Origin: Octopus vulgaris
Lineage: Eukaryota
NCBI GenBank assembly: GCA_951406725.2
Contig: OX597819.1
Span: 34,906,001 to 34,970,000, forward strand
Direction of reading: 5' to 3'
DNA: 64,000 nt
Below, piece by piece: positions 8,338 through 37,659 of this stretch. How positions within the stretch are numbered: position 1 is the first letter of the stretch; each line of letters opens with the position of its first letter. The position numbers and the translations under genes are program-made. Below the pieces are notes generated by a model that was not told where the DNA came from, did no database searches, and worked only from the letters and a program-made list of their open reading frames with translations.

Positions 8338-11300
8338 CTGATGACAAAAAAAAAAAGAGAAAAGAAACATAAAGATCATTAACAACTGTTATTGTAGATG
8401 AGTAAGAAACTTAATTTCTGAGATATTTCTCAGTTTCCCTTTCTTATTTCCATTACATATATTCAGTAACAATGGTATCTTTATGGCATGTTTGGGTTAA
8501 AAGAAGAATCTAAGACAGTAGTTTTCAACTGGGGTTCACATAAGAATTTGTTGTTAAAATTTATGTGCAATAAATAGGTTATACTGCGACAAAATATTTA
8601 AGCATTTTTTAATACAATTCTAGGTGCAGGCATGGCTGTGTGTTTAGGGAGCTAGCTTCCTAGCTACATGGTTTTGGGTTCAGTCCCACCGTGTGGCACT
8701 TTGGGCAAGTGTCTTCTGCTATAGCCCCGGGCCGACCGAAGCTTTGTGATTGAATTTGGTAGGCAGAAGTAACTGCCGCGTGTGTATATGTGTGCGTAGG
8801 TGCTTGTGCCTCTCCGAAAGAGAGAGAGGGATTTAATCATAAAAATGTAAAAGGAGATTTTAGATGCTGAATGGCCATCAGGGTCCCTCTTCCCTGAGCA
8901 AAATAGGAATCAAAGGAGTTCATAGGTTAAAATGGTTGAGAACCATTCATCTAAGAGGCTACTGATTGGTTCACTACACTGTTGAAATTGGGGAGATCAC
9001 AAGGTGCCTCGTACACTCAACTTTTGAAAGCTTGTATTCAAAATGATGAAATAATTCCAATTGTAGCTTTTGGAAGTGAGTACATGTTAACAGATGAGTG
9101 AGCCAAATAGGCTAACCACTAAACCACAGCAAATATTCACAACAATAAATCAGTAACATCAACAGGAATGTGAATATTCCTGATATCCAGTACGGTCAAT
9201 TCACAACTCACCTCCAAATGATTGTCAGATAAAGCCAAACATTTGGCTAAGTCAAATTTTATTCCAGATAACAGCAAAAGAAGATCATTAGGTAAAGCCG
9301 GTGGTCCATCAGAAACATCATATGAAGCTCTCACTGTAAAAATAAAGTTTATACATGTTTACCTATATATATATGTGTGTGTGTATATGTGTGTGTGTAT
9401 ACGAATTTTTTGTGTAATGAGATAAAAAAAACCAAGGCTGTATAGATATTAGAACATTTATAGATAGAAGGTCTTACAGCTGTTTCTAGGATATTAATTA
9501 ATAATATCCCTTCATCGGAGACGGTGTGAGAGGATAGTTAGGTCATAGTTAGTTTCGATGTGATACAAAATAGAGAGTGAGGTGGAGGAAAGAAAATAGA
9601 TGCAAGATATGTAGGGATATTGAATTCGTAAATCCGTTTTATAGACATAATGGTATATATGTGTAATATTCCAATATCCTTTGAGTAAAAGGTGAAGACA
9701 ACAACGGCGGCGCCGACGAAGACATCAGCAGCAACAGCAACGATGACAGGATCTTTTCGGTTTGAACGGCAGTTTTTTTCTAGCGGTGTCATATGAAATT
9801 GTCATCCATAATTATGACCCTAGTATCGATCTATTGCATTTCAATCTGTTTTAGGGTTAGGGTTAGGGGTGGGGAAAGGTATCTTTTTTGGCGTAACTTC
9901 GGTATATGTACCGGAAGTACCGGATACATTTCAAGAAAGTGGTTTTTTTTATATATGGGGGGTTAGGATTAGAGGTGGGAGAAAAGGGTTTCTGTTATCT
10001 TCAGAAATGTAAACAAAGTCACGTGTGTACCTATACCGAAACATCGCCCTTTTTTTTAGGGACATTTTCATACGGCACAATGTTTTCACCTCAATAGACG
10101 TCATTGATTGGTTAAAATTGCATAAATTGAAGAAAAAAACAACAAATATCTTACAAACTATAGAATTTTCTCAATAAAGTCAAGAGAAAAAGGTGTTTTA
10201 TCAACACATTCTACCAGTATACGAAGTTTAAAAGTGTTTAGTTACGTGGAAATTATCTTAAAAAACTGCCGTTCAAACCGAAAAGATCCCGATGACGATA
10301 TATTTATTTTGGGACTAAAAATTTAATATATGAGTTAAAATTGGAATTATAGCAAGATTTGAATTAAAAAATTATTAAATTATGAAAAATCTGTTGAGTA
10401 AAGGGAGGAGGAGGAGCCTCGTTCTGAGTAATATTTTATGAATGAGCAATCCACGCGCGTTTGGCATAGAATTCCATTCATGTATGTTGTGAACGACAAC
10501 TAATCACAAGGTTACTAAATTCTAACAGCTATGGAAGTTTCTCAGGAAGATACGGCTTTTCTAGCTACTTTGTATGCAGCATGCGATCTGTTTCTAATGG
10601 ACGATTGTTTTCCTCTCAGGAAAAATAGCTTGTCTGCCAACAGGGATAATAACATGGCGACCTCGTTGCTGGCGACGTTAGCGAGGAAAGGTGAATCAGC
10701 GGCAACATCTAACAAACAAAGCAAAGCTCAAGCACGAGGTTCAAGCGAAAGAGATGTGTTATTTAATTTTAGGGACAACCAATTCCGTCAACATTTTCGA
10801 ATGGATCCGGAAACATTCGAAATACTGTGTTCAAACCTATCGCCGCATATCCTGAGAGAGAATCAAACCCGAGGCAGGAAACCAGTTCCGTTGGACAGGA
10901 AGGTAAACATACAAATAATAACATTAAATAAACAATGTATTTACTACCAACATCTGGGGATGTTTATCTCTTTTATGGCTATCTTTCGTCTCTAGTAGAC
11001 CTTTCCGTCGATTTCCGTAAAAAAATTTTTTTTTTTACATATGGGCTTGCGGGAATTTTTGAAGTAATATACATACATATACACATACACCGAGTAAAAA
11101 ATTTCAGTTATCTCTTTCTTTCACACATTACTCTGTCTCTTCACACACACTAACAGAAGCACTTCACTTACACAACATACTGTCTGTCTCCCACACCCCA
11201 TCAAACACACACATGTACATCAATGCTTTCCATGCACGGTAACTTCAAAAGAATTTCCCTCGTCATACAATCGCTTTCTCTTAGTCTCTTTCGCTCTCAT

Positions 11301-14300
11301 TACTTCAAAAGTTCCCGCAAGCCCATATGTAAAAAAAAAAAAAATTTTTACGGAAATCGACGGAAAGGTCTACTAGAGACGAAAGATTGCCCTCTTGGCG
11401 TTGCCCTCTTTTATCACTGTCTGCTTATTTGTCTTTTATTTATTGTTTCAACGCCTGCACCGTGTTTACGAAGTTGGCTTAGCCCCAGGTTAACTGTTAT
11501 CGAGCAGGCCAATGATGGAGGAAGTTCTAGCTATTATCACTTTTAGTCTGATATAAGTATATCTAGGACGTTATTTTAACATGTGCTTCCTTTTATTTTA
11601 TATTTCTTAAAACTGCAATGTGTGTGATTTACAGAAGATTTGATTGCTATTTCTAGCAAATCGAGTGACTACGTAGAACCAACGGCGTAAAAATTTACTG
11701 AACCAACCTCGTTAACTTGAATATATACCAATATATACTGTCTCAAGTACTTTCCTATTATAGCATGGAAAATTAAAATGGTAAAAATCACGTAAGGAAA
11801 TAGACTTCATACATAATTTCATGGTGTTAGTTATAATTTTGTTATTTTGACAATTACTTATAACCAGTTATTTCTCTGCTGCTTCATTCAGTAAAATGTA
11901 GAATAATAAACTGTTGTTCAACTCTACAACGACAGTCTCTAAGTGCTGGAAATAGCAGCTAAGTCTCCCTCAAATCCTGGCTGACTTAACGGAGAACAAC
12001 ATAAAAGTTATTCGTCATCTGTTGAGTGTATACGAAGACAACACCACAAAACTCGTCATCCCAATGTAACAAATATTTTTAATATTAAAAATTAGATGTT
12101 CCTTTAATTTTTCGTCAGCAAAACCTAAAGGCAGCAAACTCATAGGCTAATTAAATATTTTGAGGAGATTCATCGTCCGAAAAATGATCTTAATACATCT
12201 CGAATCTTTAAAACGTTTAAAGAAAATATTTATTACGGGTTATTTCTGTTAGATTGCGAAACAAACCTATCTATCTTGGTTTTGTTCTTTCTGTGTAACT
12301 TGTAGAAGTATAATGTTAATGCTTTACTTGTTTGTTTTCAGTTAGGATTACAGGTTAATTATTGAAAGGAAGTGGCAACCAGTGCCGGTGGTACATAAGA
12401 AAACCATCCGAACGTGACCGTAGCCAGTACCGCATCGACTGGCCTCCGTGCTGAGGGCACGTAACAAACACCATCCGAGCGTGGCCGTTTCGCCAGCCTC
12501 GTCTGGCACCTGTGTCGGTGGCACATAAGAAAACACCATCCGAGCGTGGCCGTCTGCCAGCCTCGTCTGGCACCTGTGTCGGTGGCACATAAAAAACACC
12601 ATCCGAGCGTGGCCGTCTGCCAGCCTCGTCTGGCACCTGTGTCGTTGGCACATAAAATCACCCACTACACTCTCGGAGTGGTTGGCGTTAGGAAGGGCAT
12701 CCAGCTGTAGAAACACTGCCAGATCTGACTGGCCTGGTGCAGCCTTCGGGCTTGCCAGACCCCAGTTGAACCGTCCAACCCATGCTAGCATGGAAAGCGG
12801 ACGTTAAACGATGATGATGATGATGGTGAAGTTAGCCCGTGGTACACAGTCTATGTAGCCATTTTTTAAATGTAAATTATTTTTGACAAAGTAGCTTTGT
12901 TGATCCAACACGAGAAAAACAGGACAAGACAGACCTTCCGATTCCTTCAAACTGAGCACTTTGAGGAGAAATCCCTCCTCGCTTGCTCTCTCATACTGAA
13001 GTCTTTCAAAAACAAATGATCAAACATTCTCAAGAAACTATTGCTAATTGGTGTTCGCCGCTGACTATTTTAAACAGTAGAGTAGCTAAGAACAGGTGAA
13101 TAATGATACATGATGCATGAAAAGATTCAAGAGTTAGACTTCTCTGAACATCAGTCAAGAGGACAGCATTTGGAGAAAGAAGGACTGGGATTACGTGATT
13201 AGTATGGGGTCTGAAGCTGGTACACAAAAAGGGCGATAAAAGGAGCAGAAATTAACGGCTCTGGGATGCCTGTGTGAGACAGTATGGATCCAGCTAGCTC
13301 TGAGGATCAGAGGATATTATAGTGTCAGTAGAAAAGACTGGGATTACGTGATTAGTATGGGGTCTGAAGCTGGTACACAAAAAGGGCGATAAAAGGAGCA
13401 GAAATTAACGGCTCTGTGATGCCTGTGTGAGACAGTATGGATCCAGCTAGCTCTGAGGATCAGAGGATATTAAAAGTGTCCAAGGACTAATCAGTAACTT
13501 ATCTAGCCTGCTTTGCCTCAAAATAAAATGCCACAATGTTAGTTACAGCACTGGTACAAAAGAACAAATGCTATCCCTAAATTCTTTTGTAATTTGGTTT
13601 ACATTTGCTTAATAATAATGATTGAATATATAAATGAGGACAACATTCTTCATATTAATTGCACAGTTCTAATGGAAAATCAGCACTGAGACATTGGTTT
13701 ACTAGCATATCAAAGGCAGTTGACACATTCAGCTATTGGAAGGAATAATTTCTATCGTTTTTGTGTTATTATTATTATTATTATCATCCCATTTTGTTTC
13801 CTTTGAAATTAAATGCATGAGCCTGGTGCAGCCTCTGGCTCACCAGTCCTCAGTCAAACCGTCCTACTCATACCAGCATGGAAAGCGGACGTTAAACGAT
13901 GATGATGATGATGATGATGATGACAGGTATTTTGAGGATAAACCCTTTAGCATTCAGATTACTCTGTCAAATGAAATGCTTATTTATTCACATTGCTTTG
14001 AATTCATCATGCATTATCTCACAGCTTTGAGATTTCAATGATGTGATTGTTTACTTTTATAATAACATTGTAGGATAGATGCAAGAGGCTGGATCTGGCC
14101 AGTTTCAACATAATGTAGCTAGAGAATATTATAGCTGCTTTAAATGCTAGAGGGTTAACAGAGCTAATCGGTGTTTCTATAATTAAATGGGGGTCATAAA
14201 TTTTTAGTTGCAAAATTAATTCTTTGTTTTTTTGTAATATTTTTTATCAATATCATTATAAAAGGACATGTAAACAGTTTTTGACTTGTCTCCGTATCAC

Positions 14301-17300
14301 TTTATACTACAGACCATCTCCCTGTTATTCTACTGATGACATCCACTCCTTTGCTCTTAGAGCTGAAAGGTTTAAACTTAACACTGTTAATTAATAAAAC
14401 ACTCAGAACACAAATACACTGCTCAGTACTTATGTCACTGAGCTGTAATTAGAATTTCTGAGCCAGCAATTGTTGATTTTCTTTGCTGAGGGCACAATGG
14501 TAATGGTTTACAAACTGTGAACCTTCATTTTCACAAATACACATCTTTAAAATACTTTAATTTACAAACCTGTTTTCCCTGAAGAATAACTGAAAGATGA
14601 AACTAATTATTTAAGGAGATAAAGGTATGCTGTTTCCTCATATAATGTCTTAAAGAATAGTTGAAATATTAAAATCCATCTGACCTATGCTTTAAAAAAA
14701 AAACTACAGATTTCTCAAGCTTTCACATTTTGTATATTGATGTTTAGTCTACATTTTCCTACTTTCATTTTGGATTATTATTTGCTATAAACATTTTACC
14801 ATTCAGGTGCTGATGTGTTTGCGGTTTCTTGGTGCCAAAGGTGAATCAGTACGTAACATTGCAAAACAATTTCAAGTCTGTGAATCTTCTGCATCAGTTA
14901 TTCTTGACAGCATAATCAAAGGATTAAACAAACTGAAAACAGTTGTTATCAAATGGCCAAACCAAACTGAGGTTGAAGACATTGTTCAAGGTTTCTACAA
15001 CATCAGCGCATTTCCAAATGTTCTTGGTATCATGGCTACTACACACATATCAATTCTCAGCCCAAAAGATCACCCTGAAGTATACATCAACCGTAAAAAG
15101 ACTCATACAATGGTATTACAGACAATCTGTGATCACAACATGAAGTTTACTGATTGTTATACTGGCTGGCCTGGTTCTGTCCATGATTCTGTTGTTTTGT
15201 GTGAATCAGATATATTCCATGAAATAGAAAATAATCCAACAAATTTCTTTATTAAAGAAGACATACACTTGCTCGGGGCTGCAGCATATCCACTGAAAAA
15301 ATGGTTGTTGACCCCTTTCTTAGATGAAACTTGCCTCGTTCCAGATCAGCAAGAGTACAATAAAAGATTAACTGAAACTCGACTGGTTACACAACAAGCT
15401 TTTAATCTGCTTCGAGGTCGATGGTGTCGACTACAATTTGTTGGAATGACCCGCACTGCACTCATTCCAAATGTGATAATGGCTTGCTGTGTCTTACATA
15501 ATTTCTGTCTTAACACTGAAGAAGAGTTTAATGACTTTTTAGAAGAAGACCAACTTCCTTTCGATGATGGTTTTCCCACTCCTGCCAATACCTATGAAGA
15601 TGATGAAGTTGGTAAGATTAAAAGAGACAATGTAATGATATATATTAGTACCAACTAAACTGATTTTCAAGAACTTTACAACAGTATTATAACTTCTTAT
15701 TTATTTTTCCATATTACATCATAGGAAACCAGGAGTGAAATCGGCAGTGAGAAGTATAATCAAACTCATCTTTGTCATTTTGTACATTGGAAATGGAGTA
15801 TATTTTAAACAATGTACTCACAAATTTGTTTTTAATTTGTAAAGCTGAACTCTTACACATAAGTTATGGTGCTTTAAGTTAAAATATATTTTTTACTTTT
15901 GCTTTGAAATCGTTGTCCTGATCCAGGTGCTTTATGGTGAACTACGGCTGAAGGTTGTCAGCTACCATTTGCAAAAATAGCAAGCATACACTTATACATA
16001 CAGACAACTGAAATCAAACATTTCAACTAAATAAAATATGATTCTTAGCAATTGTTTTGTCATAAGAGGAATTTATTTAGTTTAAACATTCAGTTTTAGT
16101 ATTCAAAGAAATGGAACCCAGTTCACTATGAATTTAACCCTTTCGTTACTAACCCGGCCAGAACCGGCTCTGGCTCTGTAGTACAAATGTCTTATTTTCA
16201 TAAGTTTTGCATCAAAATATACCACCAAACATTAGTTGCAATTTATATTCCTAACACTAGCTTAATGATAGCTAAGTTATTTTACTAAATTCTTTGTTAT
16301 ATTTAAAATAATTGAAAGAAACACAGAGCATCTCAACATAAATACAGTAACGAAAGGGTTTAATGAAGATATCAAACAACAGGCATGGTAGCGAAGGCTA
16401 AATAATTCCAATCACTAAAAGGGTAGTAATTAACTCATTAACAATGTAGTAAATGTCATCCATTATCAACCAAGTGATGGATGGTCACAGTTGCTATTAG
16501 ATACATCAACTGCAGATACTAATGCCTTCATTCATATTCAGCTTTCAGGCAGGAAACAGATATTGTCAGATGGTGTCCAATACATTCTGTGTTGTGTCTC
16601 TCAAGGGGACTATGGTAAGTGTGGGGGGTGATGTTCGATGTGAGAGGGCATTGAGAATGATAGTTAAGAGGGATAAGCTGTAGCTGAAGGCAGAAAGGGA
16701 GGTGACTGATGGAAATAGTGTGGACAGGGATGATAATGATTAATGAAAGTGATTACAGCAACTGAGTATTACTATAGATGACATGGAGGCGCAATGGCCC
16801 AGTGGTTAGGGCAGCGGACTCACGGTTTTGCTTCCCAGACTGGGCGTTGTGAGTGTTTATTGAGCAAAAACACCTAAAAGCTCCACGAGGCTCCGACAGG
16901 GATGGTGGTGATCCCTGCTGTACTCTTTCACCACAACTTTCTCTCACTCTCACTTCCTGTTTCTGTTGTACATGTATTTCAAAGGGCCGGCCTTGTCACT
17001 CTCTGTGTCACGCTGAATATCCCCGAGAACTGCGTTAAGGGTACACGTGTCTGTGGAGTGCTCAGCCACTTACACGTTAATTTCACGAGCAGGCTGTTCC
17101 GTTGATCGGATCAACCGGAACCCTCGTCGTCGTAACCGACGGAGTGCTTCCATATTACTATAGATAGAGAAATGAGAGGTGTTAGGGGATGAAATGTGGG
17201 AAAATGCCTAACAGGGCAGATGGGGGGGGGGCTGGACAGGGTCCTACAAGCAGAAGCATAACCTAAGTAGTTTTAGGATATCATTTCTGTTGTAATGGAG

Positions 17301-27605: not shown

Positions 27606-27705
27606 NNNNNNNNNNNNNNNNNNNNNNNNNNNNNNNNNNNNNNNNNNNNNNNNNNNNNNNNNNNNNNNNNNNNNNNNNNNNNNNNNNNNNNNNNNNNNNN
27701 NNNNN
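27606..27705. other. Assembly gap (100 N)
   Basis: Exactly 100 Ns, the usual placeholder for a scaffold join of unknown size. Confidence 0.99.
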
Positions 27706-29648
27706 AAAGGCAGTTTAGCTGAGATGCTCCTAAAGTTCAACATAGTTGAAAGGCTTATGGACAATACTTTTGCTAAGTTCTCAAGGATAGACATAAGAGA
27801 ACTGGTCTCTAATATGTTTGACTCTGAAAATGTACTGATGGTTCATGAGAAAGAAGAGAGACTCAATATGTTGAAGGAAGCAGGTTCTTGATAAATATTT
27901 CTATCAGCCTGAGATGTTAGAAGGTTTAAGTGCAACAAATAGGTCAATAGTTAGCAGGTCAGAGATGATGACCTTTATCTGAACAAGGCCTACTGTAATG
28001 TATTTCAACAGATTAAGAGAGATTTCTTTAGAGAGAGGATGTTTATTATGAATCAGCAACATAGACTCACTGAAGTTAATTTCAACATTTTGGAGTTTCT
28101 GCAATTGTATTTCTCCAGTGCAAATTTATTTACACTAAAGTTGCAGTCAATGATGACACTGCTATATTACTTCCTACGCTGCTTGATTAACTAGAATAGT
28201 AACTTACTTGAAGTACTAACACCTCTCTCAAATGAACTTACAGTAGCTTTCCCAACCTCCATTTTTTTTATTGATTAACTAACCTCAATAGCTGGCCAAC
28301 TGTTGATTTCATTCAAAGAACTTTCTATCCCACTCAGTTCCTCACACATCAAACTTTTAGAGTGACACTTCAATGCTTTTGATTTCTTTCAGCGTTACAG
28401 AGAATAAGTAGCCACACAGCAACAGAATAGCATTTCTACCTGCATCTCAAGAAAACTGATCTGATATTTTAAACCTTGATCTACTGATTGATTATAAGTC
28501 TCCTCGGTCTAACATGTATTTCTCCAATTGACATAATACCCAGTGTTATTGTTGTTTAACTCCAGATCATTTAATTATAAGTCCATAATTAAAGGGGTTC
28601 CAGCCAAGACCATTCTGTCTTATCAGATTTATACTTCCCTTTTCCAAGACAGAAGAGTGATGTGAGGGAAATTTGACTGCTGTTTATAGTAAGCCATGCA
28701 AACCCATCAAGAGTTGAAGGCCCAAAGCAAGGCAATATGTGAGTGTGTGTGTCTGCAGCAGCATTATTGTTTTAACATCCACTTTTCCATGCTTGCATGG
28801 GTCATGGAAGTCACTGAGAGATTTTCTACAACTGATGCCCTTCCTGTTACCAACACACCTGTTTTCAAGCAAGGAAATATTTCCCCATAGCCAGACAAGT
28901 TTTCATGGAAGACTGGAGATTAGTCTCTACTTGTATGATGGTGATGCTCATTTATAACTATCCTATGATGTCAAAACAAAACAAGGACACACATACACAC
29001 CTATTTCACTTTCCATCTACCAAACCCACTCACAACTCTACTATTGTTCTGGACTGACCAAAGCCTGTAGTTATAGAAGATACTTGCCCAGGATAACAAG
29101 CAGTGGCACTGAACTCAAAACCAAGTGGTTGGGAAGCAAACTTTTTAATCACACAGCCATGCTTATGCCTATACACACACATCATTATCATTACCAATTT
29201 ACATTGTTTTCCATCCAGGGATGGGTTGCAGTAGTTCATTGTTTCATTTTAGCTTAGTCCCTGCTTTCTGTCATCAACTACTTTGCAAGATGTATTGAAT
29301 GCATTCTATCATGGCACCAGCACTTTAAAGGTTACACTGTCTTAGACAGGCCAAGGCAAAAGAGTCCCCTTAACTCTATGATGTCCCCACTTGTCTGCCA
29401 ACCACTTTATAGAATGCATTTTATTTTACATTTTACTGTGGCACCAGCACAAGAGAAGTTACCTTAACATGCGAGACAAAAGGGGTACTCACTTTTTTAC
29501 ATTGTCTTCAATCAGTCAGAATGTGACTAACAAAGTATATAAAAGTGAAGGTGATTGCAGAAGATGAACTAGAGTGAGAAGGAGAATGAAGAGGGAATAT
29601 GAAAGGAGAAACCAAGTTATTGAGATGATAGTGTAGAAGAAGAGGAAG

Positions 29649-29720
<72 letters not shown>

Positions 29721-32013
29721 AATAATGAAGAAAGACAGTAAAAGAAGGCCCTGTGTAGAGACACTAATGGCAGTCACATGTTTACAGGTAAAAGACAGAG
29801 GGTAAGTGATGGGTGGCTGAAGAAATGGTCAGTGAAAAGGAAGTGTGATGGCTGTCATAAATGATTGACATGGAGAAGAGGGAATGGCAAGTAGGGTATA
29901 GAAAGGTAATGTTAGTTGGTAAAATAGAACATGACTGGTGGACGTCCCCAAGAGATGACAATAAAAACAGAGTAACCTGAAAGTGGGGTGGAAGGGGTTG
30001 TAAGAGGAGACTGCATAGGTTGGATAAATGGGGAGGGGACCAGATACAAATAAATCTTATGCACTTCCTTGTAACAAAGGTCTTGTAATGGTAGGGAAAT
30101 ACTTGTGGCAGCCATATGTGTGTTGATTGAGAGGAAGGGCAAATGAGTGGCATGGTGCAGTGAATAGTAGAGGGGACAATACAGAGAAGAGGTTATTGAA
30201 TAGGCAAGAGGAGCAGCAGGTGGAGACATACGGGGGGAACAAGATGAGTGAAAGGTTCAAAGGTAGCTCCTAGATATATCCCACCCCCCTGTCACTACCT
30301 CCATTTTAACAGATGCACCACATTAGTGAGTTATGGCTCCCGACTCATATAAGAGGTTAATAACACCAAATAAGAATTGAATTGAGATGATCTGTCCGAA
30401 CCATGCCAGCATGGAAAAGCTGACGCAAGATGATAACACACACACACACACACAAATACAAACAACACAATATATATAGCATGTACATACACAAACGCAT
30501 CTATGCACAGAAATGAGACCAAAATGGTGTGTACGTGTATGCTATTATCCAGGTCAGTCCTACTCGAAAAACTAAGAAAGTCGTTCCAGTGGTGACCATT
30601 CCGTCTTTTGAAGTATGGTGTACACAGGACTGCCTAGCTCAAGGAGTTCTTCTTTCGTTAAGCGACAGAATAATTTGAGATTTGGCGACTATTTCCAGCA
30701 CACCAAACGACCCGCGTACGGATTTAGCTTCTATTTCTAGCTCAACATCGTATGTGTCTATCTATATACATACGTCTACTACAAATGATATTAAACAATG
30801 ATATGGTAGATTATTTGTATATTGTACAACAGAGATTTGAATCCCAGAAACATTTTTCTCATTTAGATTTTTAAAAATCTTTACTGATATAGTTCTCAAG
30901 ATTAAAAACAAGCTTCGGAGTTAATGACATAATTTAGAACAGATAATCGAGTACTTCTTTAGAATAATTATGTCGCCCAAACGTCTTTTTATTACTATGA
31001 TTTATTACGTGTAATAACCAAGAAAGGTGAACGGATACTTTATAACAGGACACTAAACATTTAGTTCATATCCACCAGCATCCCAATGCCCGTTGTACGT
31101 GGATAGGAAGTTACAATAGTCTTCCGGGTGGTGCGTGTAAGGGAAGAAAAATTCTTTCCAAGCAGTTTCTCAAACAGTCGCTAACTCTCACGAGGATAAA
31201 GTGGTGGTTATAAAAGAGATGTCTAGATTTCACTTAAGCGATATCTTGAAACTCCCAATCCAGGCTGCCTAAGTAAAAATAATTTCTTACTTAAGCAGAC
31301 AAGGTTTCAAATTTAAAGGAAAGATGTTGTGATGCTTACGCCTTTTCCGGGATACTTAAACGCTAACCAAGACAAGTGCAATGACCAAGGGAAGTTATGA
31401 ACATTAAAGATAATAATAAGAGAAGGAGGGATGTTATTTTGACACTATCTCCAATTGAAGTGATGTGTAATTTTTCTATTTCATACAAGTTTATATTTTA
31501 TCGCAATTTCTTGAAAAGCTCTATTAAAATTAATATCATTCAATAAAATTAAAATTACGAAACCATTAGAAATATATAAAAATTAAAGATGAAAAAAATT
31601 AACGATGCTCACATGTAAGAAATATACTTGAATTTACAGTTTCTTTAACGCAAATTCTTCTGGGACAGTAATCCAAGCTACAGAAATAGCAGAAATAAAA
31701 TAGAGTAATAATAATGATCAATAAATAAACAAAATTTTCAAAAAAATACCCTAGCGTATTTTAAATCACGTTTCTCTAATAAGCTGCATGAAGGATTTAG
31801 TAGAGATAAGTACTATAATTGATCTTTCTCAACAAGTCTTTAGTGGTAAACAAATCTTACATCAGATTGAGAGCGATTTTTTTTTTTTTTTATCATGGAT
31901 CAAATGTGAATACTATAGATTCATAGTTTATTATACACACCTACATAGAAACGTGTGTGTGTGTTGTGCATGTATATATGTATATATATATATATAGATA
32001 GATATATATATAG

Positions 32014-32066
<53 letters not shown>

Positions 32067-33989
32067 GTTCCTACATATGCACGTATACAATATATCCATT
32101 TATCACTGTAGGCATAATAGGAGAGAGAGCGAGAGAGAGAGAGAGAGAGAGAATGCAAGAAAGTTAATTGAATTTCAAATTAGAGATTCTACTGATTACA
32201 GCAGACAAAGGTAAGAAACAAAAGAGAACATCGATTAACAATAAACAATGTCGCTGTAAAGAGATAACAAATGTAACTGACAACTATTTATCCGTGGACA
32301 AAAACAGGAGGATAGGGAGGGTAACTAAAGCCGATTAACAGTAAACACCAGAATAGTTTCGGCTGATTTATAATGTCACTCATAAGACATATTTATTCAT
32401 TTACTAGTGAAGTTATAATTCACCAGAATATAAATCTAGAATCTTAGAATTTCAATTTCAAAAAAATTATTTTTAAAGAAAGATAAAGAAAAAAATAATT
32501 GCTACAAGAAAAATAATTACATTTGACGAATTAAAAAAAAAAATCTTGTTAATGCTTGTACTTTTAGAAAAAAGGAAAGGATTAAAGATGAAATAATCAT
32601 AAATACCACTTAAATGCGGATGGAATCAGTCAACAGCTCTGGATCTCATATTAATAAAAGATTTTTGGCTGGAATTTGGAAATGCTGGACGCAGAGTAAG
32701 TATTCCGACATAACACAATCAATTGAACTTCTAACAGACCGGTGTAACCGGTGCTGTGTAAACGATAAAACATATGTTGGGTAGTAAATACACGGGTGTA
32801 TTTCTCAAGTATCCCTTTACTTAAAAGTAGGTAAAACATCTAGTGTTCGAAAGCATGTTCCAATGTAGTCACTCATACAAAGAAAAAAGTGCAAGAAAGT
32901 AAAAATTCTGTTGTGTCCAGTGTATACAGGACTAACTCTTACATATGGTTAGCTTTCACTTACTTTATCACATGGTTGTCAGATTATTCTCGATTGAGAA
33001 ACCCGTGATGGTCCTTTTTCTCCACCTCATGGTTTCTTCCCACACCCATGTACTATAAATTTCCCGGCTGGAGTATAAAATTAGTTCATTCATGGTATAT
33101 AGTGTTGTATTTGAATTCGCTTTCATTTTGTTTATTTTATTTTCCAGCGACTTTTAAAAAGTATCAAAGAATAAGATGAAGGTTATATTTAATGGACTTG
33201 TTTTTGTTCTTTAAGTATGGGTCCTTTCAGTAATTCTTCCATGTCTTAGGAATTAACGACTGATATAGAAAAACTATGATTTGAAATAACAGTACAGATG
33301 ATCTATAAGGTTTTTACTAATTTTAGTAGTTTCGATAAGTATATATATATATATATAAACATACACACGCACTTATATATTATTGTTGTTGTTGCTTGCT
33401 ATATTCTGGGGTTTCGTGAGATCAAGGTTAATAATGTTCCTCTGAATTGTAGCATTTAGACAGCTGATGGACAGACATAGACCGAGAGGGAATTCCAGTG
33501 GGGTAATATTTAGGGACATACTGGTTAGGTTAGGATTCGAGGGAATAACACACTATATACGTTGGTCGGGAATGTCCGAGTAGAAGTGTCATGAGACTAA
33601 AAGCTCTGAGGGACAAAGGCCATTGTAGTAGTAGTAGTAGTAGAAAAAGCTAGAGGGAGAAAACTGAAGTGTGTTGTCATTCAGTTGGGTGACCTTTCAT
33701 GGGGATGTGGTTTTGGATGTCTGGATGTTTAAGTAGTATACCATTGTAGGTCTCACTTTAGGACTGGAAAGAGTTTCTATCGCTGGGGCCGAAGTACTCT
33801 CATGACCCAAAATAGGATTATTGAATAAATTAATATTTTATTAGCCTGAAATACTAAATTTATTGAATTCAGTCTCATTGTATAACACCTTGGACTAACC
33901 CAAGCCTTGTGAGTGAATTTACTAAACGGAAATTGGAAAGAAGCCTAACACCCCCTACACCCACACACAAGCTTAGATAGAAACAATTA

Positions 33990-35780
33990 GAAGCATCAAA
34001 TTGCTGGAGGAGGTGATGAAAAAGTTACTATGGGTCATAGTTCAACTAATTAGGAAGAGAGCTAGCCTAGATGAGATGCAGTTTGGTTTTGTGCCAGAGG
34101 GAAGCACTACTGATGTTATCTGCCTGATAATGCAACTTCAGGAAAAGCATTTAGCTAAAAATAAACTGCTGGAGAAAACTTTTGACAGACACCCCACTCC
34201 TTTATCTGCTGTTCAATGTAGAAGCTAGGGATAGATGAGTAGTTGGCAAGAGCTATAAAGGCCATGTACAGGGATGCTGTCAGTAAGGTGTAAGTCAGCC
34301 ATGACTGTAACAACAAATTTAGTGTACACATGGGAGTTCACCAAAGATTGGTTCTCAGCCCCATCTTGTTTATCATAGTAATCCAGAACAGAGAGAATTT
34401 TAAAACTGCTCTTGAGAGCTTCTCTACTCTGATGACTTTGTTCTTATAGCTGAATCATTACTAGAACTAAAGAAGAAATTTCAGGTGTGGAAGTAAGATC
34501 TGAAATCCAAAGGCCTTAGAGCTAATTCAGTAACGGCCAAAGTCCTAGTTAGTAGGAAAACAGACAAATCATTAATCTCTTCAAGGAGAAAACCTGCTCG
34601 ATATGGTAAGAGGTGCAGTGGTGTTATAGGAAGCTTGGCAGAGAAAGTGGTCTTTGTGTGTGAAAAATGTGCAGGTACAATAAACACAAAGAATGTACAG
34701 GAAATAGACATCCTCAAATGCCTGGAATAATCGAAATTGAAATAAAATTCGATGACTGGCATCCATGCTAGTGGAGCGCTAAGAGTACCATCCCAGTGTG
34801 ATCGTTGCCAGAGCAGCTGACTGGCATTTCAGTGCCGATGGCACATAAAAAGCACCATTCGAATGTGATCATCACCAGCGTCGCCTTACTGGCACGTGAA
34901 AAATATTCATGCGAGGTCGTTGCCAGTGCCGCTGGACTGGCTCTGTGTAGGTGACATGTAAAAAACACCATTTGAGCATGGCCGTTGCCAGTACCACCTG
35001 ACTGGCCCCCTCAAGTGCCGTGGCACATAAAAGCACTCACTACACTCTCAGAGTGGTTGGCATTAGGAAGGGCATCCAGCTGTAGAAACTCTGCTAGATC
35101 AGATTGGAGCCTGGTGCAGCCATCTGGTTTGCCAGTCCTCAGTCAAATCGTCCAACCCATGCTAGCATGGAAAGCGGATGGTAAACAATGATGATGATGA
35201 TGATGATGATGATCCTTAGAAGTAGTAGATAGCTTCTATCCTCTAGGCAACCAAGTTAGCGGCAGAGGAGGATGTTTTAAGAATGTAGTTGCTAGAATAA
35301 GAATGGGCTGGCCAAATTTCAGCGAGCTACTATCTTTGTTGGTAATAAAGGGCTTCTCCTTCAAAGTGAAAGACAAATTGTATGATGCCTGTATACAAAC
35401 AACCAAGCTACATGAGGGAAACATGGGCTGTGACTGCAGAGAACGTATGAAGGCTTCAAAGAAATGAACCCAGCATGCTCTGCTGGATGTGCAATGTCAA
35501 TGTGTATGTACAATGGGGTGTAAATGTTTTAAGAGAAAAATTGGGTACAAGAGGCATCAGATGTGGTGTACAAGAGAGAAGACTGCATTGGTATGGTCAT
35601 GTGATGCATTTAGACGAGAACAGCTGTGTAAAGAAGTGCAAATCTCTAATGATGAGGAAGGAGTAGACCAAGGAAAACATGAGATGAAGTGAGAAATGAT
35701 CTTCAGATGTTGAGCCTCACAGAGGAGAGTACAAGTGACTGAGACTTCTGGCAATTTGCTGTGCTTGAGAAGACACATCA
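33990..35780 (+). mobile_element. Degenerate RTE-like LINE reverse transcriptase fragment interrupted by a SINE
   Basis: DEMQFGFVPEGSTTDVICLIMQLQEK, GVHQ..VLSP.LF, LLYSDD and RRLHWYGHV in broken frames. Confidence 0.82.
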
Positions 35781-36617
35781 AACTAAATGAAATCATTGGT
35801 ATCTCCCCTCCCTCCACATACATGTCTTTTATGGTCTTTTCCCTCCACCTCACACATTCAGTCATCTGACCAATGTCAAAACTCACCCTTCTTCCCAACA
35901 CTTGCTACAGGACCCACCCTTCACTCTCTCTCCCTTGCCTATCTGCACACTCTCCATGCTTTCTCATTCCTACCCCTCCCAGCCACAACAATTTCCCTAA
36001 CCCTCACTTGCTGCAGTTATGTCTTCCTCCGTCTCTAAACAGCTCCTCACACACTTGTGGAACATCTCCCTCTACCCCCTCTGTACTACTTATACCTGCT
36101 CTCACTGTTCACTGTGGATAGGCCCCAATACATCTCCAGCACAATCTGTTTTTCTCTCTCTCTCTCTCACTCTGATTGTCTATCTTCCTTTTTAACTTTC
36201 TCCCACCTTCCTTGTCCTACATGGGTAGCCAAGTATTTTCTCTATAGTAAGACAGCTATTATACTTTAACTTCTTGCCTAGCACACAGCCACTTCCCTTG
36301 ATTCCACTCCCCCTCTCTCACCTAAGAGATCTTTGTCTTGAAAATTATTTGGTAACCCTACAGGTGCCAGTGCTACATAAAAAGCACCCAGTACACTCTC
36401 TGAAGTGATTGGCATTAGGAAGGGTGTTCAGTTTAATTAAAGCCTGGTGCAGCTCTTCAGCTTGAAATCTCCTGTCAAACTGTTCCACCCATGCCAGCAT
36501 GGAAAATAGACAATAAATGATGATGTACATAAACATAAATTGATTTTGTTTTTGATTGATTGATTTATATCATTTTGAGTAGGTAATTAGTCTCAGGTCA
36601 GACTCTTTACTTACCTA

Positions 36618-36656
<39 letters not shown>

Positions 36657-37659
36657 GTATACACACACACACACATATATGTATGTATGTACACACAGTC
36701 ACTATGAGGATATATAAAACCTATTATATGGATAGTTTTATCCAAGTTAAACTGGTTTATTATATATGTGTTTTGTAATTTGTATAGAGTGTAAACTGAA
36801 ACAATTGGTGGCAATTTTAATTAATTAATAAATTAATTTATATCCATTAAATCTCTCCATTTTCTTATTTCATAATATAAGTATATATTTATGTATGTAT
36901 GTATGTATGTATGTATATCACCATCAAGCCTTATTGTTTCCCCCTTTTATTATCGTTGTCTTTCGTCTCAAATGCTAGCTGAAGCATTTCTCCACAACAT
37001 ATAAACTTATTCACACGACCGCAAAGCATTTCATCTCAAATCTTGTCTTTCTGTCGCTTAAATCTCTACCCCATCTTTCCCAGTGCGAGGCAACTAGTGA
37101 GGCCATAACCCGTGGCCCCTACCTAAGACGTAGTCAGTCCACCTGTGCATACCTTCCTTCTTGTGACACTTGTGAAGACCTGTTGAGGCAAGTGAAAATC
37201 AAAAAATCAAAAATCAAACCAAAGTCAAACCAAATTAAAATAGATGAACATCAATGGAATTTGTATCTTTGTGGTACCAGTGCCGGTGGCACATAAGAAA
37301 ACCATCTGAACGTGGCCGTAGCCAGTACCGCATCGACTGGCCTCCGTGCTGTGAGCACGTAACAAACACCATCCGATCGTGGCCATTCGCCAGCCTCGTT
37401 TGGCACCTGTATTGGTGGCACATAAAAAACACCATCCGAGCGCGGCCGTCTGCCAGCCTCGTCTGGCACCTGTGTCGGTGGCACATAAAATCACTCACTA
37501 CACTCTCGGAGTGGTTGGCGTTAGGAAGGGCATCCAGCTGTAGAAACACTGCCAGATCTGACTGGCCTGGTGCAGCCTTCGGGCTCTCCAGACCCCAGTT
37601 GAACTGTCCAACCCATGCTAGCATGGAAAGCGGACGTTAAATGATGATGATGATGATAT

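Follow-up and report, generated by a model that had tools for sequence, protein, structure and literature searches.

What becomes of a transposase gene whose reading frame stays open and whose catalytic residues are gone? The question is raised by a 64,000-nt stretch of Octopus vulgaris DNA (assembly GCA_951406725.2, contig OX597819.1, positions 34,906,001 to 34,970,000 of the forward strand; the window), which carries on its plus strand, at 10531-15658, a gene related to the transposases of PIF/Harbinger elements. A preliminary description, made from the letters of the window, had read this gene as a domesticated transposase with three substituted acidic positions, selected as a non-catalytic scaffold, possibly a chromatin regulator, and possibly an independent molluscan domestication. 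Domestication and loss of the D/D/E triad are supported by splicing, by the single copy, by orthologues, and by variation that avoids the columns conserved in the family: the locus is a spliced, conserved coleoid host gene derived from a PIF/Harbinger transposase and lacking the D/D/E triad. The terms scaffold and chromatin regulator are, for their part, analogies to the plant proteins ALP1 and HDP1.

The coding sequence consists of exon 1 (10531-10902, residues 1-124), which has a single place in the genome, and exon 2 (14807-15658, residues 125-407 and the stop codon); joined, they give 1224 nt, or 407 amino acids plus stop. Between them lies a repeat-bearing intron of 3904 nt in phase 0 (10903-14806), which starts with GTAAAC and ends with ATTCAG. 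The undisrupted 407-residue frame and the 3.9-kb GT-AG intron are thus as first described. The predicted 10902/14807 junction, with 3904 nt skipped, is present in contigs of all four sequencing runs searched, which come from four studies; these runs were classed as RNA by a software guess, and the spliced junction bears their RNA origin out. Spliced contigs start at 10438, 10439, and 10471, so that the 5' untranslated part of exon 1 is placed at 10438-10530 (10438 being the furthest contig end), and they end at 16019-16051, which gives a 3' untranslated region of 15659-16051 with AATAAA at 16030. Transcript contigs reach 10438-16051 at most, with little or no cover of the unique parts of the intron. 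Within the exon pieces listed for these contigs there are no letter differences from the window, and the triad substitutions are therefore not assembly errors.

Exon 2 matches the Pfam family DDE_Tnp_4 (PF13359) with an E value of 8.4e-30 and 103.9 bits (curated cut-off 24.8), which confirms the family assignment. An AlphaFold model of the product shows a confident transposase fold (mean predicted local distance difference test score, pLDDT, 78.9), whose closest structural counterparts are piggyBac (Z 10.1, root-mean-square deviation 5.0, 242 residues aligned) and then Tn5 (Z 9.0, root-mean-square deviation 5.8, 230 aligned); a search by sequence for relatives of solved structure gave no credible hit, and Foldseek at E 0.001 gave no match. 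In the model, both the RNase H-like DDE fold and the N-terminal helix-turn-helix of the family are present, the former as a core of residues 196-361 (15020-15517) that is borne out by the Pfam and fold matches, and the latter as a predicted element of residues 139-166 (14849-14932). Exon 1 encodes a conserved N-terminal helix, a low-confidence linker (residues 17-78), and the start of a helical N-domain (FRDNQFR..FRM). The N-terminal helix, predicted to be hydrophobic and to span residues 5-22 (10543-10596; pLDDT about 52-54), keeps its LY/QxACDxFL motif throughout the clade of the window gene, and may be a protein-binding element.

The triad itself was located in an alignment of the window protein, two paralogues, and 183 of 191 fetched proteins (the eight under 200 residues were excluded), in which the catalytic columns were identified from what the family conserves, from the predicted secondary structure, and from the general layout of such folds. 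The first catalytic Asp is replaced by Ala201 (GCT at 15035-15037, in GIMATTH), which lies in a predicted strand of residues 196-207; the second is replaced by Ala282 (GCT at 15278-15280, in LLGAAAYPL), just past a predicted strand of residues 278-280; and the Glu is replaced by Gln320 (CAA at 15392-15394, in TQQAF), within a predicted helix of residues 303-329. The intact triad of an active PIF/Harbinger transposon is therefore absent, and the three residues sit where, as we take it, an RNase H-like fold ordinarily has its three metal ligands. Among 167 outside relatives, Asp is held at the first column by 151 and at the second by 159, and Glu at the third by 138; the full triad is kept by 130 of the 161 that are ungapped at these columns, and four keep none of it. 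All 17 members of the window clade (six clusters at 90%) have Ala, Ala or Val, and Gln at these positions, with Val at the second in 5/17. Given how firmly the relatives hold these columns, the loss in the clade is not due to chance. The codons proved to be those first reported; the accompanying remark that each is one base from Asp or Glu is true but says little, because most single amino-acid changes are one base apart. The remaining Asp of the GSVHD motif (Asp251, GAT at 15185-15187) is kept, and as the first residue of a predicted helix (251-256) it is more likely a structural cap than a member of the triad. The protein is very probably non-catalytic.

Orthologues with the same losses are found in three genera: Octopus (O. 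bimaculoides and O. sinensis), Argonauta (A. hians), and Sepia (S. pharaonis), with identities of 60-98%. The spliced product is 97.5% identical to the O. bimaculoides protein and 97.8% identical to that of O. sinensis. Over residues 125-365 identity to the window protein is 218/241 in Argonauta and 188/241 in Sepia, and over the linker it is 29/53 and 17/48, respectively. Variable sites fall in 24 of 103 family-conserved columns versus 80 of 181 others (Fisher p 0.0005), a protein-level sign that may point to purifying selection. The clade is fully supported and splits into octopod and cuttlefish branches (100/100), with the remaining clade sequences grouping with Sepia; octopods and cuttlefish separated roughly 270 million years ago. 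Beyond the clade the similarity falls off abruptly: a search of 1.84 billion representative sequences found two at 85% and 68% identity and then a drop to 46% or less, and in a metagenome scan aimed at the DNA of orthologues none of the 80 loci recovered exceeded 44%. Of the idea of a molluscan domestication, what stands is a coleoid gene shared by octopod and cuttlefish, as judged from the sequences recovered; an extension to molluscs in general was not borne out. Two clade members, P0005 (284 residues, beginning at its first Met) and P0037 (282 residues), match the length of exon 2 alone and come from genomic contigs of 195,241 nt, an indirect hint that the intron is shared and that the cuttlefish line has duplicates side by side. 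On an older common origin with P0053 and P0095, both triad-dead, the trees disagree: these two are sister to the clade with FastTree support of 0.97-0.98 and with support of 100 in one IQ-TREE run, so that three trees favour it, and two (another IQ-TREE run and a mixture model) do not. A different, fully supported clade (P0017, P0062, P0094, P0126, P0173), which includes Nucella and Haliotis proteins and lacks the catalytic Glu throughout, may represent a separate gastropod domestication.

The genomic setting is likewise that of a host gene. A genome search found one copy, with two further matches just 32% and 36% identical, and an intact relative used as query recovered the same three loci; these counts are lower bounds, and within them the several related copies typical of an active transposon were not found. 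No pair of terminal inverted repeats (TIRs) with a TWA duplication flanks the gene within 5-6 kb on each side, in keeping with the initial reading. In the 5 kb on each side, 39 overlapping inverted matches of 11-mers were seen; a 3-bp duplication (ATA) accompanies one of them, whose right arm falls within the transcript. With an intact frame, expression, and orthologues across distant species, and with no near-identical TIR-bearing copies and no acidic triad residues seen in reads or orthologues, the gene is almost certainly domesticated.

Loss of the triad is accompanied by loss of positive charge around it, while fold-forming residues are retained. Positions 253, 256, 296, and 321 are Lys or Arg in 84, 74, 83, and 77, respectively, of 95 triad-intact relatives and in none of the 17 clade members; all 17 lack all four basic residues, as does none of the 95. 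The core (residues 171-365) has a net charge of -6 in the window protein, compared with a mean of +4.3 (standard deviation 3.9) in intact relatives, only 2/93 of which reach -5 or lower. The second helix of the helix-turn-helix is also acidic (net -2/-3, versus +1.35 in intact relatives). Judging from their conservation and their position beside the triad, the four lost residues would face DNA, and because they are lost clade-wide, binding of substrate DNA at the catalytic face is probably gone too.

The role that we favour, by a modest measure, is that of a non-catalytic adaptor that would reach chromatin with a Myb/SANT protein as its carrier, in the manner of plant ALP1 or HDP1. On the simplest account, the fold would have been retained for its protein surfaces: the protein would not cut DNA and would probably not hold substrate DNA at its catalytic face, but could still bind a Myb/SANT protein of Harbinger type by that protein's C-terminal helix. 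Such a partner would supply nuclear import and a DNA address, and the dead transposase would bridge to, or compete within, a chromatin-modifying complex. The precedents are from plants and are taken here, like the other published systems, from the available parts of the papers cited. In Arabidopsis, ALP1 (triad DGA) reaches Polycomb repressive complex 2 (PRC2) through ALP2 (PMC4671723, PMC7282668), and HDP1 contacts HDP2 as well as IDM1, an acetyltransferase (PMC5339849). In the ALP1-ALP2 and HDP1-HDP2 pairs, and in rice Ping, it is the C-terminal part of the Myb partner that binds the nuclease (PMC7282668, PMC5339849).

The search for such a partner, which the preliminary description had proposed, gave nothing within about 100 kb of the gene and two unlinked candidates. 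Five Myb/SANT-like loci (L016-L020) are present in the genome, on C6, C3, C26 (two, 18 kb apart), and C20, and four of them resemble the second genes of intact Harbinger elements. The best candidates are L016 (G000 C6:316 kb), which matches itself and L017 alone in the genome, and L017 (C3:1.297 Mb). Among the 80 metagenome loci with related transposases, at least nine carry an L016-like frame and most of these also an L017-like one, with the match extending to the C-terminal helix. Seven transposases of such loci fall in or beside a broad clade that holds the window gene, a paralogue on C11, and intact elements (FastTree support 0.90), and lie nearer the C11 gene. At three other loci (L092, L100, L140) the second gene is most like L018/L019 on C26, and the transposases fall with a paralogue on C25. 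Since the second genes of the elements thus match L016/L017 or L018/L019 by clade, both Harbinger lineages that left transposase genes seem also to have left Myb genes. A predicted complex between P0001 and the last 63 residues of L016 scored 0.00 in two runs, which were made without alignments and with the partner fold uncertain; the score speaks neither for nor against the pairing. Most of 43 Myb_DNA-bind_4 matches, which come from the 150 of 448 candidates that were scored, were set aside as a repeated ORF1 domain of long interspersed nuclear elements; two of them (L021, L025) were read.

Several observations weigh against the adaptor role. In the profile search of 9698 frames, no Myb gene was found within about 100 kb on either side (one interrupted by introns might escape such a search), so the adjacent second gene (Myb, SANT, or MADF) of an active Harbinger transposon is not seen over this distance. 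The candidates L016 and L017 could equally serve the C11 paralogue, because the C11 branch is nearer the elements that carry this type of Myb gene. The acidic core is not universal in the clade, since one type of cuttlefish-branch paralogue is near neutral (-2 to +1), and loss of the basic sites seems to be a path taken more than once and is not peculiar to the window gene, since several other triad-damaged relatives share it. Finally, co-domestications in insects mostly arose from one insertion, and several insect cases involve the transposase alone (PMC9710019).

These last cases, together with the lack of a linked Myb gene, lend themselves to a domesticated dead scaffold that has no Myb partner and acts as a homodimer, as a heterodimer with other Harbinger-derived proteins, or as a platform outside chromatin. 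The conserved, clade-specific N-terminal helix would suit such a protein, and HARBI1 has been suggested to have partner-independent functions (PMC9392472). Against this, every sequence that covers the region retains the helical N-domain with its basic residues (R86, R90, R116, R123, and R140), and Myb genes of matching type are still in the genome; we regard a partner-free scaffold as unlikely, if a serious contender. It is also conceivable that the protein restricts transposons, poisoning Harbinger transpososomes as a dead subunit or sequestering their Myb protein. A subunit with a dead triad and an intact fold is the classic dominant-negative form, and the genome searches gave no intact transposase of this Harbinger kind, although that count is a lower bound. 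Yet such strong conservation sits poorly with the failure to find a target here, and in plants the ALP proteins failed to bind those of Ping (PMC7282668), which argues that domesticated pairs become specific. Restriction is accordingly a distinctly improbable function.

A retained nucleic-acid activity, whether through another chemistry or through DNA or RNA binding of the protein's own, would have to make use of H250-D251, the NRKK loop, and R316/R329/R332. H250, D251, R316, R329, R332, and H355 are indeed invariant in 17/17 clade members, and NRKK is kept in 11/17; but NSWK replaces it in the other 6/17, the three metal ligands are all gone, the basic sites near the active site are lost, and a single triad change cripples transposition of rice Ping (cited in PMC4671723). 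Such an activity is very unlikely. Least credible of all, to the point of being negligible, is the view that the locus is an artefact of the assembly or a transposon copy that is decaying or non-autonomous. The homology to transposases and the repeat-filled intron and flanks are what such a copy would have, but against it stand the single copy, the lack of TIRs, the splicing seen in four studies, and a frame that is open, with substitutions that are shared, all the way from Octopus to Sepia.

The adaptor role would extend beyond this locus if the two paralogues had similar fates. Both are triad-damaged: the C11 gene (L002, G000 C11:75.969 Mb) has Thr for the catalytic Glu and orthologues in O. 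bimaculoides and Sepia; the C25 gene (L003, G000 C25:13.407 Mb) has two exons, belongs to another lineage, has Asn for the first Asp and for the HD aspartate, and was seen in Octopus alone (two species). A single origin of the window and C11 genes is weakly rejected (approximately unbiased test, p-AU 0.033), with long branches in play, and their intron places differ. One may therefore picture a coleoid chromatin-targeting kit of at least three separately tamed, damaged transposases with clade-matched, scattered Myb/SANT partners, of which the window gene would be the most disarmed and, in the cuttlefish line, duplicated again: an animal counterpart of the ALP/HDP systems arising with the coleoid body plan. 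This larger picture is tentative and, in our estimate, rather doubtful. Nine of the 12 DDE_Tnp_4 matches in the genome have no tblastn match to three Harbinger queries (seven loci tested) and were set aside; those that were read look THAP-linked. Apart from these, an open frame of 439 residues with THAP and DDE_Tnp_4 domains (L010:1474-2790, G000 C3:6.87 Mb) looks diverged from broken THAP-linked copies and is possibly another domesticate.

Comparison with known systems places the gene more exactly. It resembles ALP1 in its origin from a Harbinger nuclease, its damaged triad, its immobility, and its one intron near the 5' end; it differs in that all three triad residues are changed, compared with one or two in the ALP1 clade as published, and in that its origin, in another kingdom, is separate, the link to PRC2 and ALP2 belonging to ALP1. 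With HDP1, in the published account, it shares a triad that is not conserved and the lack of TIRs and target-site duplications (TSDs), and HDP1, a nuclease-derived subunit that itself bridges to a chromatin enzyme, has the very role proposed for the octopus protein; partner and complex are proven for HDP1, whereas the octopus counterpart is proposed by analogy. From active PIF/Harbinger transposons the gene has kept the fold and most conserved motifs, its nearest relatives being 45% identical or less, but it has no triad, no TIR or TSD, no linked Myb gene, and one copy. Database entries label the protein, by similarity, "putative nuclease HARBI1" or "ALP1-like", and the former is a mislabelling. 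HARBI1 presumably keeps its triad, and the comparison with it is by description. As described in the available sources, HARBI1 (with NAIF1) is likewise an animal host gene of Harbinger transposase origin; it is called a predicted nuclease (PMC3424704) and was detected in jawed vertebrates only (PMC9392472). Closer in form are the insect genes DPLG1-7, APLG1/2, LPLG1/2, and BPLG1/2, which are single-copy, intron-bearing, TIR-less, lineage-restricted, and 350-430 residues long, and some of which, like the octopus gene, have no adjacent MADF gene (PMC9710019); the octopus gene differs in being of a mollusc lineage, and the main text of that paper does not contain the word stem "mollus".

As a class, domesticated Harbinger transposases are already known, having been described in jawed vertebrates (PMC9392472) and insects (PMC9710019) as well as in plants; the octopus gene would be a further case. 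No cephalopod case was found in a literature search that left subscription journals and supplements largely outside, so that a mention in a genome paper is possible; the one relevant paper, PMC10027918, deals in its available text with Octopus families of other transposon derivation and leaves MADF genes out. In the literature available here, Harbinger-derived chromatin regulators are proven in plants, and what the animal cases do is for the most part unknown. A gene that spans the coleoids and has lost its entire triad, with candidate partners that can be named, lets one ask cleanly in an animal whether the fold of a dead nuclease has been recruited repeatedly as a chromatin adaptor, and it is another entry among the coleoid-specific genes of transposon origin. 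Gene knockouts are possible in squid.

The surroundings of the gene are rich in repeats. A 541-nt element lies at 9749-10289, about 150 nt upstream of the furthest transcript end. Its inverted ends of 30 nt are perfect and start with GG, and a direct repeat of 7/8 is present on its flanks; we take it to be a Merlin- or hAT-like miniature inverted-repeat transposable element. The intron holds a 415-nt foldback element (10977-11391) with arms of about 90-110 nt, at which a target duplication was not seen. Sixteen of about 400 long open reading frames in the flanks were scanned and gave mostly mobile-element domains and one Sec62 exon (L068:8752-9213, G000 C6:35.069 Mb), which lies about 150 kb downstream and is usable as a synteny anchor. 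Further along the window there is a 12.2-kb inverted duplication, 99.3% identical, with copies at 27706-39885 and 49823-61983 that enclose two arrays of about 5 kb each, one of a GGCCA-type repeat (about 39.8-44.9 kb) and one of the telomere repeat CCCTAA (about 45-49.7 kb). It adjoins a gap of 100 N (27606-27705), 35 Mb into the contig; either the assembly folds back here where a chromosome ends, or the structure is the scar of a real fusion.

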